From: Escherichia coli
GTDB taxonomy: Bacteria; Pseudomonadota; Gammaproteobacteria; Enterobacterales; Enterobacteriaceae
Assembly (NCBI RefSeq): GCF_003790525.1
Contig: NZ_CP033636.1
DNA: 64,000 bases
Direction: 5' to 3' (one strand)
Made by a program: the position numbers and the translations under genes. Below are positions 24,172 to 28,021 of this stretch, in pieces (position 1 is the first letter of the stretch; every line of letters begins with the position of its first letter). The notes under the pieces were generated by a model, which ran no database searches, was not told the DNA's origin, and saw only the letters and a program-made list of their open reading frames with translations.

Positions 24172-24963
24172 GTGGCAGATAATTATACTCTGGCGTCGTT
24201 TATTATTCCCTGCACTCAGGAGCAGGCTAAAATGGCACAAGAAGCAATCACATTCGTTACCGAAGCAGAAATTGCAGAAGGTGAGCGTTTGATTGATAAG
24301 CCACTGGCAGATTGTTCTCTGACTGAGAAGCTGATTCTCAGTATTATTGAGAACCACCCTGAGTATGACCCTTCAGAGCCGAGCTTTGGGCAACCATCCT
24401 GCCCAGACTGTAATTATGAACTGTCGTTCGCAACAGAAGTTAACAGCAGTGGGCTGTCAGTTTTTCATGGAGAGACTATTGATCTTGACCATGCAATTTG
24501 CCTCACAACTGCCGTGCTGTCGGTATTCGACCTCCCGGAAATGGTAACAATTACTGCTGCATTTACATGCAGTAAAAGCCGGACAGATGAATTTGGGGGT
24601 ATGACTATTCTGGTCACAAAGGATACCCACTATTACCAGGATGGCTGTCAGTTTTCTCGTCTCATGAATGAGGCTCACAAAGCCGGTATCCAGTATGCTC
24701 TGTGTAAAGTGACGCATTACCACGGTGAGAGCAGCTATGTGGCAAGCTATGTCCTGAGCTGCGACGTAGCGGATTCAGCCCAGGAGGTCGTTAACAGACG
24801 ACTGAAGGCATGTGCCGGAAAAGAGCCAGAAGACGGAATCTATATTCTGAGTGAAGAAGACAACACCAGTCTTTCGGTCGAACTCGTTACAGAACTGTCT
24901 CCGCTCGATTACGACAAGCTGAGCAAGCTTCTTCCTTCCCTTGACACCCTTTGCGGCGCATAA
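24172..24963 (+). CDS. hypothetical protein, first gene of PP-loop cluster
   Basis: 263-aa ORF; GTG start 6 bp after aaggag. Confidence 0.5.
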   Translation: MADNYTLASFIIPCTQEQAKMAQEAITFVTEAEIAEGERLIDKPLADCSLTEKLILSIIENHPEYDPSEPSFGQPSCPDCNYELSFATEVNSSGLSVFHGETIDLDHAICLTTAVLSVFDLPEMVTITAAFTCSKSRTDEFGGMTILVTKDTHYYQDGCQFSRLMNEAHKAGIQYALCKVTHYHGESSYVASYVLSCDVADSAQEVVNRRLKACAGKEPEDGIYILSEEDNTSLSVELVTELSPLDYDKLSKLLPSLDTLCGA

Positions 24964-25014
24964 GCCTGCCTGATAACCGTAGCCACCGGTTCCCCCGGTG
25001 GCCTGGAGCCTGCC

Positions 25015-25464
25015 ATGACCAATAAATTCATAGTATCTACCGTTGTTTGCATCAATGACTTTGCAAGTGATGTTCCGCAAAGTGTTTCCTTACGGATAGA
25101 TACAATGCTTGAACAGCGTATCCGCAAATTGGCGACATACGTGAAAAAAAACGATCTTCAGTTAACTGAGTTTTACTTCTATGACGCTAACTGGTCATTT
25201 TGTGGTGAAGATGAAATTCAAGAAATAACAGACCAGGATGAATATAAGCATAGCGATAGCACAAGGCAGGAAGCGATGCTGCGGGAAGTAATGCCATCAG
25301 CACGTACGGAATGCCCGGTTATTAGGGTGATGAAAGATTCATTTCAGCTTTCTGCTCTACCACGCCATTGTGGTGATGACATGACTCTTAACACTCCTTC
25401 AATTCCGCTGTCTGAGTTGAAAACAAATGTCACGGCTTTTATTACACCACCAACCTATATCTAA
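25015..25464 (+). CDS. hypothetical protein
   Basis: 149-aa ORF with RBS ggag; between the 24172 gene and the PP-loop gene. Confidence 0.45.
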   Translation: MTNKFIVSTVVCINDFASDVPQSVSLRIDTMLEQRIRKLATYVKKNDLQLTEFYFYDANWSFCGEDEIQEITDQDEYKHSDSTRQEAMLREVMPSARTECPVIRVMKDSFQLSALPRHCGDDMTLNTPSIPLSELKTNVTAFITPPTYI

Positions 25465-25636
25465 TAGCTGTGCTGGGAGATTAAATTACAATGGGTTTTT
25501 ATTTTAAATCTATTTAAGAATTAAATTTGCGTGATTTTGATTTAATATAATTTCGCTAAATGGTTGCGCTGTAGTTATTTTAAAGTTCTAATAAAAATAT
25601 CAGTGATGCAGCATATGCCGTGGTTCAGGAAAATAT

Positions 25637-28021
25637 ATGTTTATTGAAAAAAGTGACTCATTCCTTGAATTACCCTCAGAAGTTATTTTTCCTGAGGCGG
25701 CTAATGCTGCCATTTTGAAACATGATAAATGGGCTGATGTTTGGGAGACCCTGACAACCGATGCCGATCTGAACTATACCGATGAAAAGGAGACTGTGAG
25801 TCTTTCTTCTCTGGTCACGTCAGCCACATCTGCTATTTATCAGGCTATTACGGACGGATGGACGATGTGCGTGGGATACAGTGGCGGTAAAGACTCCCAT
25901 TCTCTTCTTCACCTATTTCTGATGGCATTGATCAGGGCAGTACGTAACGGCACAAATATCAGCGAACATCATTTCATTCAGATGTCCGATACGCTGATCG
26001 AAAACCCTGAGATGCACTATCAGGCTTCACAGGTTCTCAACCAGCTTAGAATGTTCATTGCTGAACACCAGCTACCGGTCACAGTCCTTGTCGCCCAACC
26101 GTCTCTTACGCAGAGCTGGGTAGGCCGCATTCTGACTGGACGTGGACTTCCGACCTGGACTAATTCTTCAACCCGTCAGTGCTCAACCGACTACAAAATC
26201 GCCCCCCTGCGCAAGGCCAAAGCTCGTTATCTAAAAAACGCCCCGGCATCCGTACGAAGCAGGGTATGCCTGATGCTGGGCTCCAGGGATGATGAAAGTG
26301 CCCGAAGGGCCGGAAATATCCTCAAAATGGGAGGGCAGGCGAGGAAAGTAACCCTGACTGAGCACGGTGGTGAACTCTATCCAGTAAAGGAGTGGCGCAC
26401 TCAGGACATCTGGTCTTTTCTAATGGCCTGTGGTTCCGAATCCCGCTTCCCTTTACCAAGCTTTATGCCGGATAACTTCAGCCTGGCAACGCTTTATAAA
26501 GACGCCACCGGAGAGTGTATCTGGTCGCCGGAGAAACCCACGCGAACCTCAGCTTGTGGGGCTAGATATGGGTGCTCGCTTTGCACAGCCGTAGGGGTTG
26601 ACCATTCAATGGAAACGCTCCTTCGCACTGACCCTGAGAAATATGGTTATCAGGCAGGCCTAAGTCGTCTTCAGCGATTTCTTTCTAAGATCCAGTACGA
26701 CTGGAGCCTGCGGGATTATATCGGTCGTAAAGTGTTCGAAGGCGGGTATGTGCGTCTTCAACCCAATATCTTTTCTTCGTCCCTGACTGAACGTCTTTTT
26801 CATGTCTGTTGCAGCCTTGATTATGTTGAAGCCAGACGTGCGGCAAAGCATCGCAGAAAGCTACTTTCCGGCGAGGTGGACGATACGGCTTATAACCGTC
26901 GTATGGCTGAGCCACAATTTCGGCTTGTACATGAAGCAAACGTGATCCACGTTGATTTCCTCTGGTCGTTGCACTGTTTCAACCCTCGCCCGTTTCGGGC
27001 AATTGAGATCTATCGCAGAGTCTGGGAAGAGGCCGATCTGGACCTTCTTGAGGATGAGCCTGACATGCTGCCTGTGGCCCGTACACCAATGCCAGCTCCA
27101 CTCTGGATGAAACTGCCCGGAGGCCGGTTCGGTACAGCTTATGATGGACTGACTGATACGTTGCCGCTGATGACCTATTTTGACGGGCAGGCTGACCCCA
27201 GGGCTTCACGTAGCCTAAAGACCGGAGAGAGCAGTTCTGTCGTCGTGGCATTCGAGGAAGAGGATGAGCTGACTGTTGAAGAAGATACGGCGTCCTGGAT
27301 TATCTGGCATGAATACGACGGGTTACGCCAGAGCATCGCTGACGGTGAGTTTACTCCAACGACTGCTGCTCAGTATCTTCTTCGTTATGGCGCGGTCCGA
27401 ATTTCAAAAGGGAAGGGCGCTGTCTATCATCGTCTCGCACAACGGGGACAAACCTTTTCCCGCCTGGGGATAGGCGAAAGAGTGTCGCTTCCAGAGCTGG
27501 TTGCCAGTCGGCGTTTTAAAATACTCAGCGATACTGCATACCGTCAGGTTGTAGCCCGGAAATTGCGTGGACAGATAAAAAAGTTCAGATTCTGGGCATG
27601 CGTAGCTGCCTGTGTACAGTTGCACGTACACAACAAGACGGCACTCGGAGAAAGAATCTTAACGTTACTCGAAGGTGAGAGGGAACAGCAACAAGGTGCG
27701 ATCCAGGCGAAGCTGAAGGCGGGAATGATGGATGCAGTTCTAACTCTGTGTAACCAGCGACTCCGGGTGAAAGAAAATACTAACCAGCCAGAGGAGTTCC
27801 GCTATTACCGTGCCGTAAGAGCTCGTTTCATGCGCCATTTATCTGAATGCCTTAAGCCAGAAAATGGCGGCGTTATCCGTGACGTTATCTGGGAACTGAG
27901 GGTGCTGAGCAGTGCTCACGGTACGACCAAAACAGGTTTTTACTATGTCGATAGCAATCGCCCGACAGCGAAAGGACTGTTAAACCGCCTTCTGATGAGG
28001 ATGGTCAGGCAGGTCGTATAA
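25637..28021 (+). CDS. PP-loop ATP pyrophosphatase family protein (PAPS-reductase/DndC-like) with a long C-terminal extension
   Basis: 794-aa ORF; PP-loop SGGKDS (CVGYSGGKDSHSL) near residue 80 and a downstream cysteine cluster CGARYGCSLC; about 400 C-terminal residues have no motif I recognise. Confidence 0.6.
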   Translation: MFIEKSDSFLELPSEVIFPEAANAAILKHDKWADVWETLTTDADLNYTDEKETVSLSSLVTSATSAIYQAITDGWTMCVGYSGGKDSHSLLHLFLMALIRAVRNGTNISEHHFIQMSDTLIENPEMHYQASQVLNQLRMFIAEHQLPVTVLVAQPSLTQSWVGRILTGRGLPTWTNSSTRQCSTDYKIAPLRKAKARYLKNAPASVRSRVCLMLGSRDDESARRAGNILKMGGQARKVTLTEHGGELYPVKEWRTQDIWSFLMACGSESRFPLPSFMPDNFSLATLYKDATGECIWSPEKPTRTSACGARYGCSLCTAVGVDHSMETLLRTDPEKYGYQAGLSRLQRFLSKIQYDWSLRDYIGRKVFEGGYVRLQPNIFSSSLTERLFHVCCSLDYVEARRAAKHRRKLLSGEVDDTAYNRRMAEPQFRLVHEANVIHVDFLWSLHCFNPRPFRAIEIYRRVWEEADLDLLEDEPDMLPVARTPMPAPLWMKLPGGRFGTAYDGLTDTLPLMTYFDGQADPRASRSLKTGESSSVVVAFEEEDELTVEEDTASWIIWHEYDGLRQSIADGEFTPTTAAQYLLRYGAVRISKGKGAVYHRLAQRGQTFSRLGIGERVSLPELVASRRFKILSDTAYRQVVARKLRGQIKKFRFWACVAACVQLHVHNKTALGERILTLLEGEREQQQGAIQAKLKAGMMDAVLTLCNQRLRVKENTNQPEEFRYYRAVRARFMRHLSECLKPENGGVIRDVIWELRVLSSAHGTTKTGFYYVDSNRPTAKGLLNRLLMRMVRQVV

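Follow-up and report, generated by a model that had tools for sequence, protein, structure and literature searches.

Judging by its sequence, a gene conserved on IncHI2 resistance plasmids codes for a solitary relative of DndC, the enzyme that places sulfur in the DNA backbone, and this relative is fused to a domain without a known fold. This gene was found in a stretch of 64,000 nucleotides of Escherichia coli DNA (contig NZ_CP033636.1), hereafter the window, which corresponded to an IncHI2 plasmid backbone with a MOBH relaxase and an F-type mating-pair system. An ORF check recovered the three ORFs that the initial annotation had placed here, of 263, 149 and 794 aa, all on the plus strand (Table 1). 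The 4.1-kb segment that they form was present at 95-100% identity in 1,006 PLSDB plasmids, which were of the IncHI2A/MOBH/MPF_F type where examined. Since both this segment and the motif residues described below are conserved, the three ORFs are not the product of chance. The 794-aa protein bears the same annotation across IncHI2 records, 'phosphoadenosine phosphosulfate reductase family protein', and its AF2 model showed a mean pLDDT of 91. No description of this plasmid DndC-like family was found in the literature.

Table 1. The DndC-like gene, its domains and motifs, and the neighbouring genes discussed in the text (positions of the window).
Feature	Position	Strand	Remarks
Orphan DNA methyltransferase	21203..22453	+	Mrr_N winged helix and N6_N4_Mtase
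263-aa very acidic protein	24172..24963	+	GTG start; pI 4.37, net charge -26
149-aa protein	25015..25464	+	Second lineage-specific upstream gene; no profile matches
Solo DndC-like gene	25637..28021	+	794-aa ORF; WP_000469466.1
DndC-type catalytic domain, residues ~62-351	25820..26689	+	PAPS-reductase-like PP-loop fold and cysteine cluster
PP-loop SGGKDS, residues 82-87	25880..25897	+	ATP pyrophosphatase motif; invariant SxGKDS; DndC alignment
Cys182 in R-Q-C-S	26180..26182	+	Counterpart of the DndC R-W-C-T cysteine; invariant column
Cysteine cluster GEC294 ... C307-G-A-R-Y-G-C313-S-L-C316	26516..26584	+	Presumed [4Fe-4S] and sulfur-relay ligands
Family-defining C-domain, residues 352-642	26690..27562	+	Fold matches none known
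Basic all-helical tail, ~residues 643-794	27563..28018	+	Lineage-specific; helices 632-793 in the model
HNH endonuclease	29130-29663		1.1 kb downstream of the enzyme gene; phrog_2118 E 1.7e-55; weak PtuB-like matches

Profile searches and hhalign indicated that the N-terminal part, as had been suggested, is DndC-type and not a housekeeping CysH or tRNA enzyme, and residues ~62-350 can clearly be assigned in this way from sequence. The alignment with a genuine Salmonella DndC, encoded in a dndBCDE cluster, reached a probability of 99.9% (E 4e-37) over ~290-400 residues, with correspondence of SGGKDS and of all five cysteines (C182, C294, C307, C313 and C316), and among PADLOC profiles DndC was matched at E 4e-38 and BrxP at E 4.7e-6. 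Both motifs on which the initial annotation relied, SGGKDS and CGARYGCSLC, were located, the latter at residues 307-316 (26555-26584), and both were conserved in relatives. Among 91 diverse aligned relatives, spanning 24-75% identity, SxGKDS was invariant (S82, G84, K85, D86 and S87), as were C182, C294, C313 and C316, and C307 was conserved in at least 90%. The invariance of catalytic residues in relatives down to 24% identity argues for selection on enzyme activity and, taken together with the confident AF2 model, for purifying selection on a folded enzyme. The aligned cysteines of DndC have a cluster-binding role (PMC10853773), and by analogy those of the plasmid protein are presumed to act as [4Fe-4S] and sulfur-relay ligands, so that adenylation-plus-sulfur chemistry as in DndC is probable.

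The plasmid protein shares with DndC (DptC, of DndABCDE; TIGR03183) the PP-loop fold, SGGKDS, RxC, GEC and CG-R-F/Y-G-C-x-x-C, but it is ~250 residues longer, its C-terminal half is unrelated, it is without DndB/DndD/DndE partners, and it resides on conjugative plasmids and not in defence islands. The score obtained with TIGR03183 in the NCBIfam search (117.6 bits) fell far under the cutoff of 290.4, on which basis orthology with DndC itself was rejected; PRK06850 likewise scored 129.9 against a cutoff of 536. SspD and BrxP, from SspABCD and type 4 BREX, belong to the same superfamily and share a presumed sulfur-inserting role with the plasmid protein. Identity with either was discarded, given that the PADLOC match to BrxP (23.1 bits) covered no more than the PP-loop region and SspD was left unmatched, and no gene for SspA/B/C, BrxC, PglZ or BrxL was annotated anywhere on the plasmid. 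BrxP, too, has extra C-terminal domains, through its fusion to DUF4007, and the DndC cysteine dyad, which the plasmid family keeps, is missing from both BrxP and SspD (PMC12839542). A likeness to QueC that had also been proposed was not borne out, as no QueC or QatC model was matched in Pfam, NCBIfam or PADLOC searches. IbrA/YbdN-type PAPS reductases carry a C-terminal DUF3440 and are accompanied by an adjacent ParB-like IbrB/YbdM gene. No DUF3440 was detected in Pfam scans of the whole protein or of the C-domain alignment, which led to the rejection of this candidate, and no DndB/ParB-like gene was found near the window gene.

The C-terminal half had been left unassigned and remains so, since residues 352-794 had no similarity in Pfam, PDB or DndC. 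A profile of residues 352-642 aligned with DndC at an hhalign probability of 0.1%, that is, as an unrelated sequence. This domain was confidently folded in the predicted model, was always fused behind the PP-loop domain in full-length relatives, and presented six invariant residues in a 26-sequence alignment (D395, E398, F428, W443, A455 and R603); a fold comparison found no recognisable DNA-binding fold in it. The tail (pI 10.3, computed for residues 632-794) found counterparts only among close relatives on plasmids of Enterobacterales, and alignment occupancy was 0.26-0.55 beyond residue 640.

With respect to DndB, DndD and DndE, the enzyme gene is solitary, in agreement with the initial annotation: tblastn with these three proteins from the Salmonella dndBCDE cluster as queries returned none of them below E 0.1, either in the window or across the 264 kb of a complete reference plasmid, on which no cysteine desulfurase is annotated. 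At 12 other loci of relatives, no DndD/E was found within 8 kb, and DndB was present at only one (L006), where a DGQHR/DndB protein adjoins the relative.

Two genes do precede the enzyme gene, as had been noted, but the suggestion that all three may form an operon behind a promoter at 24093 found no support: a 172-bp gap separates the upstream pair from the enzyme gene and the promoter could not be confirmed. The nearest sigma-70 site was a 9/12 match at 24131-24158, and the sigma-70 scan of positions 22400-29200 yielded 6 sites where chance alone would give 9.5. A search upstream of the enzyme gene for a hairpin resembling a single-strand promoter was negative. The 263-aa protein had zero matches in the profile libraries searched, and its homologues fell into 15 clusters, all from Enterobacterales plasmids or contigs. 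At one locus (L010), two tandem paralogues of it lie upstream of a 52%-identical enzyme, together with a 33%-identical homologue of the 149-aa protein in the equivalent position, and in another lineage (L023) an IS-mediated deletion truncates the 149-aa protein. It is only in IncHI-type plasmids that these two genes accompany the enzyme, and therefore they are not general partners of it.

The enzyme family is restricted to mobile elements. Relatives were found on 2,454 of the 72,556 PLSDB plasmids, most of them conjugative (2,034/2,454, 83%), and the IncHI2 allele occurred in 248 of 5,426 complete E. coli genomes, being plasmid-borne in 254 of its 257 places. An IncHI1-type plasmid of S. Typhi carries a relative at 75% identity and another lies on an IncC-like plasmid that also has genes for Dcm and a primase, while further relatives were found in ICE-like islands and prophage-like arrays, and distant ones in elements of Marinobacter, Halomonas and Chloroflexota. 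In a widespread Enterobacter/Citrobacter/Serratia IncHI2 lineage, codons 1-311 are deleted, by which the catalytic half is gone, and IS insertions interrupt other copies of the gene. Owing to this deletion and these disrupted copies, the enzyme gene must be regarded as dispensable, and its benefit as conditional at best.

The location of the gene in a plasmid establishment island is an assumption. It is transcribed towards a probable oriT gap (58818-59521), from which its end is separated by ~31 kb that include the relaxase operon. A recent survey of leading regions left out PTU-HI2 because over half of its members lacked a known oriT, and reported few or no known anti-defence genes in the MOB-H plasmids PTU-C and PTU-HI1A (bioRxiv 10.1101/2025.04.03.647016).

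DNA methyltransferase genes were found around the enzyme gene and some of its relatives. The product of the orphan methyltransferase gene upstream matched Pfam N6_N4_Mtase (1.3e-21) and Mrr_N (1.8e-6) and PADLOC MTase_II (1.2e-46), and on a Halomonas plasmid (L015) a gene for a 42%-identical homologue (9921-11183) directly follows the DndC-like gene; this methyltransferase may be a functional associate of the DndC-like enzyme. A methyltransferase was present within 8 kb at 6 of the 13 loci surveyed (the window, L005, L006, L008-L011, L013-L015 and L017-L019), a weak indication given how often arrays of this kind contain methyltransferases in any case. The family stands among orphan methyltransferases in same-strand gene arrays, and it resembles the orphan or single-strand-specific methyltransferases of leading regions in its proposed role, that of a partner-less DNA modifier pre-empting restriction. 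The chemistry and fold are wholly different, and, of the two, it is only for certain methyltransferases that early expression and a place in the leading region are documented.

Another parallel is offered by phage PAPS-reductase and PAPS-Dam proteins (Vibrio phage 44E38.1 p0018; phrog_424, phrog_12882, phrog_2302; PDLC03333), in which a mobile PP-loop domain is likewise linked, physically or genomically, to DNA methyltransferases; the PADLOC methyltransferase model PDLC03333 matched the PP-loop domain of the plasmid protein at E 7.5e-23. These phage proteins, of ~200-480 aa, match only residues ~60-350 and are without the 352-642 domain and the tail, and whereas the phage methyltransferase can be fused, that of the plasmids is a separate gene that is near only sometimes. 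The CysH-like genes of type IV-B CRISPR-Cas plasmids, for which a tie to DNA modification or RM antagonism was proposed (PMC7038947), are also plasmid-borne members of the PAPS-reductase family, likened here by description only; no csf/cas genes were annotated on the IncHI2 plasmid.

Considering the restriction to mobile elements, the orphan methyltransferases and the phage PAPS-Dam precedent, a DNA-modifying or anti-defence activity, as first suggested, is the most reasonable hypothesis. In its specific form, we tentatively propose a self-contained sulfur-inserting DNA-modifying enzyme that would protect against restriction, although our confidence in it falls somewhat short of even. The PP-loop would spend ATP to adenylate a substrate oxygen, and the five conserved cysteines would bind a [4Fe-4S] cluster and pass sulfur on, as in DndC. 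Where DndC has the portion that presumably cooperates with its partners, the ATPase DndD and the DNA-binding DndE, the plasmid protein has the conserved 290-residue domain and, in the present lineage, the basic tail. These new C-terminal domains would bind the substrate, and the plasmid enzyme would act alone, its sulfur supplied by the host cysteine desulfurase IscS. Nucleic acid would be the acceptor of this sulfur, and the likeliest product would be a phosphorothioate-type mark on the DNA of the plasmid itself, which would thereby be shielded when restriction is met in a new host; the nearby orphan methyltransferases would work alongside. In canonical phosphorothioation, DNA targeting requires DndD/E or SspB/C, which counts against a solo DNA-modifying enzyme, as do the lack of a recognisable DNA-binding fold in the C-domain, the ~31-kb distance of the gene from the probable oriT and its loss in one IncHI2 lineage, and we know of no modified nucleoside in IncHI or IncC plasmid DNA. 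A broader proposal, which appears rather doubtful, is that plasmids of the IncHI/IncC type, like many ICEs, encode a DNA sulfur-modifier made of one polypeptide, which marks incoming DNA, possibly the transferred single strand; the fusion of a DndC-type core to a new substrate-binding domain would then make the DndD/E and SspB/C partners unneeded.

The enzyme could instead serve in counter-defence against the phosphorothioate-based immunity of the host (Dnd, Ssp or type 4 BREX), joining or competing with DndD/E or SspB/C of the recipient, so as either to speed up the self-marking of incoming plasmid DNA or to block the host system, which would be useful only in hosts carrying such systems. DndC itself is the closest homologue, and the only experimental precedent for a mobile PAPS-reductase domain is an anti-Dnd one, in which transfer of a Vibrio phage PAPS-Dam fusion gene with one neighbour allowed a sensitive phage to escape Dnd (bioRxiv 10.1101/2021.05.05.442762). 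A preprint on Aca-regulated operons, in which phage PAPS reductases were proposed as anti-RM/anti-PT genes (10.64898/2026.07.27.740549), agrees with this reading, as do the adjacency of one relative (L006) to a member of the DndB regulator family of Dnd and the frequent loss of the gene, which a conditional benefit would suit. However, the presumed partner-contacting C-terminal half of DndC has been swapped for an unrelated domain, which argues against docking to DndD/E; dnd has a patchy distribution in Enterobacterales, whereas the gene has been retained on IncHI1, IncHI2 and IncC-like backbones and on distant elements; and the invariant catalytic residues speak against a purely steric decoy. 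Counter-defence of this kind was therefore judged unlikely.

It is quite improbable that the enzyme represents the modification half of a plasmid defence or exclusion system, in which a linked nuclease, such as the HNH protein, would attack unmarked phage or plasmid DNA. DndC, SspD and BrxP all work in defence systems, defence genes are common on plasmids, and the HNH gene lies close by, but tblastn did not detect this gene beside the enzyme at 12 other loci, and no nuclease partner is conserved across the family. Moreover, where IS elements have removed the catalytic half, the HNH gene persists undamaged with no apparent harm, which counts against such a system because loss of the modification half would be toxic in a restriction pair.

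A non-DNA substrate has a similarly small chance of being correct. The enzyme would in this case thiolate or otherwise modify RNA (tRNA, cf. TtcA, TtuA and NcsA), a small molecule or a nucleotide signal, and would thereby adjust the physiology or translation of the host to the needs of the plasmid. Similarity to tRNA enzymes was confined to ~40-50 residues of the PP-loop region, DndC models scored ~100 bits above tRNA-enzyme models, and the family has spread on mobile elements and not in core genomes.

It is barely credible that the protein is a common PAPS reductase of sulfate assimilation (CysH), or a relic in decay that no longer has a function: the database label, the PAPS_reduct domain and fold shared with CysH, a weak Pfam match to PF01507 (E 3.7e-5) and the truncated and IS-disrupted copies would suit it, but no CysH model (e.g. 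PRK02090) was matched at E <= 0.01 in NCBIfam, its 794 aa are three times the ~240 aa of CysH, it has DndC-type cysteines and is plasmid-borne, and the motifs are invariant across the 91 aligned sequences and the AF2 model is confident.

If the broader proposal of a single-polypeptide DNA sulfur-modifier is true, these plasmids would carry a new class of anti-restriction function, run on sulfur from the host IscS, and it would help to explain how MOB-H plasmids become established in new hosts without known anti-defence genes.

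The 794-aa protein encoded on this IncHI2 plasmid backbone is a DndC-type PP-loop and cysteine-cluster enzyme with a new, conserved domain at its C-terminus; Dnd partners are absent, and the gene is kept by selection on conjugative elements. The initial annotation had described a run of three genes ending in it, and the ORF list bore this out, since the three ORFs lie consecutively on the plus strand where they had been placed, with both motifs, SGGKDS (residues 82-87) and CGARYGCSLC (residues 307-316), in the 794-aa product. The enzyme gene is a real, conserved plasmid gene. 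Its 4.1-kb segment was matched at 95-100% identity by 1,006 PLSDB plasmids from Escherichia, Salmonella, Enterobacter, Klebsiella and Citrobacter, 909 of which were predicted to be conjugative. Where records were examined, the plasmids were typed as IncHI2A with a MOBH relaxase and MPF_F, and the enzyme was WP_000469466.1, labelled solely 'phosphoadenosine phosphosulfate reductase family protein'; both upstream genes were labelled hypothetical in the IncHI2 records examined. The window allele was found in 248 of 5,426 complete E. coli genomes (4.6%), on plasmids in 254 of 257 places. More widely, relatives at E <= 1e-20 occurred on 2,454 of 72,556 PLSDB plasmids (3.4%), 2,034 of them conjugative, with hosts that include Enterobacterales, Pseudomonas, Vibrio, Burkholderia and Aeromonas. 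Phage matches consisted only of short PAPS-reductase proteins covering the N-terminal third of the enzyme.

Regarding the N-terminal core, Pfam yielded only a weak PAPS_reduct match (E 3.7e-5, residues 78-264), and the NCBIfam models PRK06850 and DndC TIGR03183 reached 129.9 and 117.6 bits against cutoffs of 536 and 290.4, the matches to TtcA and others being confined to the PP-loop. PADLOC returned DndC models at E 4e-38 and 2.4e-37, the methyltransferase model PDLC03333 at 7.5e-23 and BrxP at 4.7e-6, and PHROGs returned phage 'PAPS reductase' families at 1e-9 to 1e-13. When the DndC of an authentic dndBCDE cluster in Salmonella Infantis SARB27 was compared by hhalign with an alignment of 91 relatives of the window protein, a probability of 99.9% (E 4e-37) was obtained, and the aligned motifs comprised SGGKDS, RQC182/RWC, GEC294, C307-G-x-R-Y/F-G-C313-x-x-C316 and then D-x-S-M-E. 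Residues S82, G84, K85, D86, S87, C182, C294, C313 and C316 were invariant across the 91 sequences, and C307 nearly so. DndC is a PP-loop ATP pyrophosphatase in which three cysteines hold [4Fe-4S], accompanied by a DndC-specific cysteine pair that is absent from BrxP (PMC10853773; PMC12839542). All five of these cysteines are retained by the plasmid family. The catalytic core is thus of DndC type and under purifying selection. Membership of a canonical Dnd, Ssp or BREX-4 system was ruled out by the score cutoffs and the absent partners; the catalytic features are common to DndC and this family, whereas score, partners and C-terminal half set them apart.

The protein is built of a DndC-type core (residues ~62-351), a family-defining domain without known fold (352-642) and a basic helical tail specific to the lineage (643-794). 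Searched against the full database, residues 401-794 retrieved ~130 representative clusters, in which residues 401 to ~640 matched proteins of 570-880 aa, in full-length ones always at ~350-650, behind the PP-loop domain; matches to the last ~150 residues were limited to close plasmid relatives in Enterobacterales. Occupancy and conservation in the alignment were high for residues 61 to ~635 and collapsed beyond, and the computed pI of residues 632-794 was 10.3. Modelled separately, residues 352-642 gave a confident structure (pLDDT 89.7), and D395, E398, F428, W443, A455 and R603 are invariant in this domain. Its description as part of an unassigned 400-aa extension was correct, as residues 352-642 had no Pfam match and their profile alone had no similarity to DndC (hhalign probability 0.1%). 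That same value led us to discard a DndC homology over residues 356-476, reaching 476, which had appeared in long hhalign and PADLOC alignments. The relatives retrieved from AFDB50 were all unannotated 'PAPS reductase' entries; Q935R1 from Salmonella Typhi (75% identity), which we take to be an IncHI1-type plasmid protein, came closest.

The enzyme had also been regarded as solitary, and this held on a larger scale: used as tblastn queries, Salmonella DndB, DndD and DndE had no match with E below 0.1, either in the window or anywhere on the reference plasmid pHS13-1-IncHI2 (complete, 264 kb), only DndC giving one (window 25820-26629), and no cysteine desulfurase, Ssp, BREX or Csf gene is annotated on pHS13-1-IncHI2. 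The two upstream genes are neighbours specific to the lineage and not general partners. Their homologues occupy the same upstream positions in L010, a large plasmid contig with a 52%-identical enzyme, where the 263-aa gene is in tandem duplicate, and are absent from every other surveyed locus. The 263-aa family comprises just 15 clusters, all from Enterobacterales, and the protein is confined to IncHI-type plasmids. Neither upstream protein had a match in Pfam, NCBIfam, PADLOC or PHROGs, and the idea that they are divergent DndB/ParB or PAPS-like partners was rejected, with no similarity in these databases or by tblastn and BLASTP. With a pI of 4.37 and a net charge of -26, the 263-aa protein is remarkably acidic, and its charge is reminiscent of DNA-mimic anti-restriction proteins.

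At loci elsewhere that carry relatives of the enzyme, DndD or DndE was found within 8 kb at none of the 12 tested (L005, L006, L008-L011, L013-L015, L017-L019). The sole locus with a Dnd-type neighbour was L006, whose DGQHR/DndB-family protein shares 27% identity with Salmonella DndB across 213 aa. A methyltransferase lay within 8 kb at 6 of 13 loci (the same 12 and the window), a suggestive proximity, although methyltransferases are common in such gene arrays anyway. On the Halomonas plasmid of L015, the gene directly downstream of the DndC-like gene is a 42%-identical homologue of the window Mrr_N/N6_N4 methyltransferase. Short paralogues of 371 or 405 aa, each with its own SGGKDS, were located just upstream of the long DndC-like gene in L015 and L025; this pairing at two distant loci suggests a two-enzyme version of the system, whose short member IncHI2 lacks. 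DUF3085 is a second family whose genes lie near the enzyme at loci separated by a large phylogenetic distance: L014 has a 40%-identical homologue of the window protein ~5 kb upstream of the DndC-like gene.

The layout of the surroundings was derived from comparison with pHS13-1-IncHI2 and from the window's own ORFs. Besides the enzyme, the plus-strand array holds a RelE/ParE toxin, an HNH endonuclease, DUF957 and DUF3085 proteins, an IS150 copy and two methyltransferase-like genes. The first of these, just ahead of the second, encodes an acidic protein of ~202 aa that weakly resembles SAM-dependent methyltransferases (E 1e-5 to 6e-3 for spermidine synthase and KsgA models). The second encodes an orphan methyltransferase in which N6_N4_Mtase is joined to a winged-helix domain, Mrr_N; L010 keeps just the first 59 residues of this protein, inside a 67-aa called gene. 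The HNH endonuclease (phrog_2118, E 1.7e-55; weak PtuB-like matches), 1.1 kb downstream of the enzyme, was not co-conserved with it in other loci. The IS150-type element, with two overlapping ORFs (173 and 283 aa), breaks the same-strand array, and in a near-identical reference record it is followed by a hok-family toxin gene.

Features of the window and of loci elsewhere that carry relatives of the enzyme (L handles)
Feature	Record	Coordinates	Strand	Remarks
repHI2	window	near 4.7-5.8 kb		comparison with pHS13-1-IncHI2
Long array, mostly small same-strand genes	window	~13 kb to 47 kb	+	
Methyltransferase-like gene	window	20426-21034		
Mrr_N/N6_N4 methyltransferase	window	21203-22453		
Hairpin	window	23982-23996		
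263-aa ORF	window	24172-24963	+	GTG start; ORF list of window 20-32 kb
149-aa ORF	window	25015-25464	+	ORF list of window 20-32 kb
794-aa ORF (enzyme)	window	25637-28021	+	ORF list of window 20-32 kb
HNH endonuclease	window	29130-29663		
DUF3085 protein	window	32173-32664		
IS150-type element	window	36283-37652		
Tra1 relaxase operon	window		minus	downstream of array
NERD nuclease (Tra1)	window	48621-49352	minus	
S49 peptidase (Tra1)	window		minus	listed between NERD nuclease and coupling protein
Coupling protein (Tra1)	window	52304-54388	minus	
MobH relaxase (Tra1)	window	54388-57540	minus	
MobI / mobI (Tra1)	window	58278-58817	minus	
AT-rich gap, probable IncHI2 oriT	window	58818-59521		between mobI and first + strand transfer genes (59522 onward)
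Dcm, N6_N4 methyltransferase, primase	L005, IncC-like plasmid contig			Dcm 2 kb upstream
DGQHR/DndB-family gene and 90-aa gene	L006, Citrobacter plasmids, 669-aa relative	6488-7558 (DGQHR/DndB)		directly upstream
ParA, HU, type IV pilus genes, DUF551	L008, L009, L017-L019, ICE-like or prophage-like arrays			
263-aa gene homologues	L010	5119-5955, 6464-7270		
67-aa called gene	L010	1894-2097		
Giant Eco57I-type methyltransferase-helicase	L011, Shewanella plasmid			upstream
Dcm-like gene	L014, Marinobacter contig			2 kb downstream
DUF3085 homologue	L014	2922-3416		upstream
371-aa short PAPS-reductase paralogue	L015, Halomonas plasmid pNRS2HaP12	6712-7827		directly upstream
Methyltransferase homologue	L015	9921-11183		
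Short PAPS-reductase paralogue	L025, metagenomic contig	6022-7239		upstream
IS5-family deletion example	L023, Enterobacter cloacae IncHI2 plasmid OW849189.1	3270-6452		= window ~25200-26570

A promoter at 24093 had been proposed in front of the three genes and was not borne out: the sigma-70 scan gave 6 promoter-like sites against 9.5 expected by chance, the closest being a 9/12 match at 24131-24158. Between an 85-aa ORF and the 263-aa gene, a GC-rich hairpin with a T-run behind it resembles a terminator on either strand, which suggests that a new transcription unit starts at ~24.0-24.17 kb. The gap between the 149-aa gene and the enzyme gene is AT-rich and 172 bp long. Single-stranded DNA folding of two intergenic regions showed no convincing hairpin, and a single-strand promoter hairpin was dropped on the z-scores obtained (-1.97 and +0.51). 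The end of the enzyme gene and the probable oriT are ~31 kb apart, the relaxase operon lying in this interval, and the gene is oriented towards oriT; in F-like plasmids, leading-region genes point towards oriT. A recent survey of leading regions left out PTU-HI2 on the ground that over half of its plasmids had no known oriT (bioRxiv 10.1101/2025.04.03.647016). The placement of the gene in an 'establishment island' is no more than plausible.

It was also observed that several IncHI2 records had IS insertions inside the 4.1-kb segment. In an Enterobacter/Citrobacter/Serratia lineage, an IS5-family insertion and deletion cost the 149-aa gene its 3' part and the enzyme its codons 1-311, corresponding to the whole catalytic core, and left in L023 a 470-aa C-terminal ORF; the same 312-794 remnant was found in Citrobacter, Serratia and Enterobacter plasmids. 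These events indicate that the enzyme gene is accessory and dispensable for plasmid maintenance, and that any benefit is conditional.

As for its function, we tentatively favour, with rather less than even confidence, a thiolation of nucleic acid that protects against restriction. The enzyme would adenylate the nucleic acid, most likely plasmid DNA, and thiolate it with sulfur that host IscS supplies; in substrate handling, the basic tail and the new C-domain would stand in for DndD/E, and the modification would act as a protective mark. It is unlikely that the enzyme is instead a counter-measure that depends on, or jams, the host Dnd/Ssp machinery. Two phage-specific genes of a Vibrio phage, including a PAPS-Dam fusion, allowed a sensitive phage that received them to escape host Dnd (10.1101/2021.05.05.442762), and an anti-RM/anti-PT role has been proposed for the phage PAPS reductases of Aca-regulated operons (10.64898/2026.07.27.740549). 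On plasmids, type IV-B CRISPR loci are linked with enigmatic cysH-like genes (PMC7038947), and PAPS-domain hypothetical proteins were the most diverged between two otherwise near-identical pQBR plasmids (PMC4989453). That the gene provides the modification half of a defence pair carried by the plasmid is quite improbable, and similarly little credence is given to RNA or a small molecule as the substrate. A housekeeping CysH or a decaying relic is scarcely credible: CysH and tRNA thiolase were both rejected, as NCBIfam gave only PP-loop-level TtcA matches and no CysH, and the gene is plasmid-borne. No functional study of PAPS reductase or DndC-like genes from IncHI2, IncC or other plasmids was found in the literature.

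IncHI2, IncHI1 and IncC plasmids are major vehicles for mcr-1, for multidrug resistance in typhoid and for carbapenemase genes. [quoted passage not shown] Two things make the enzyme worth following up at the bench: its prevalence on MOB-H resistance plasmids of clinical importance, and the availability of phosphorothioate assays. If it proves to be a partner-independent DNA sulfur-modifying enzyme, it would represent a new minimal architecture for DNA backbone modification and a new kind of plasmid anti-restriction function, directly testable with those assays. If the substrate differs, the conserved 290-residue domain without known fold would still define a new mobile-element-specific enzyme family.
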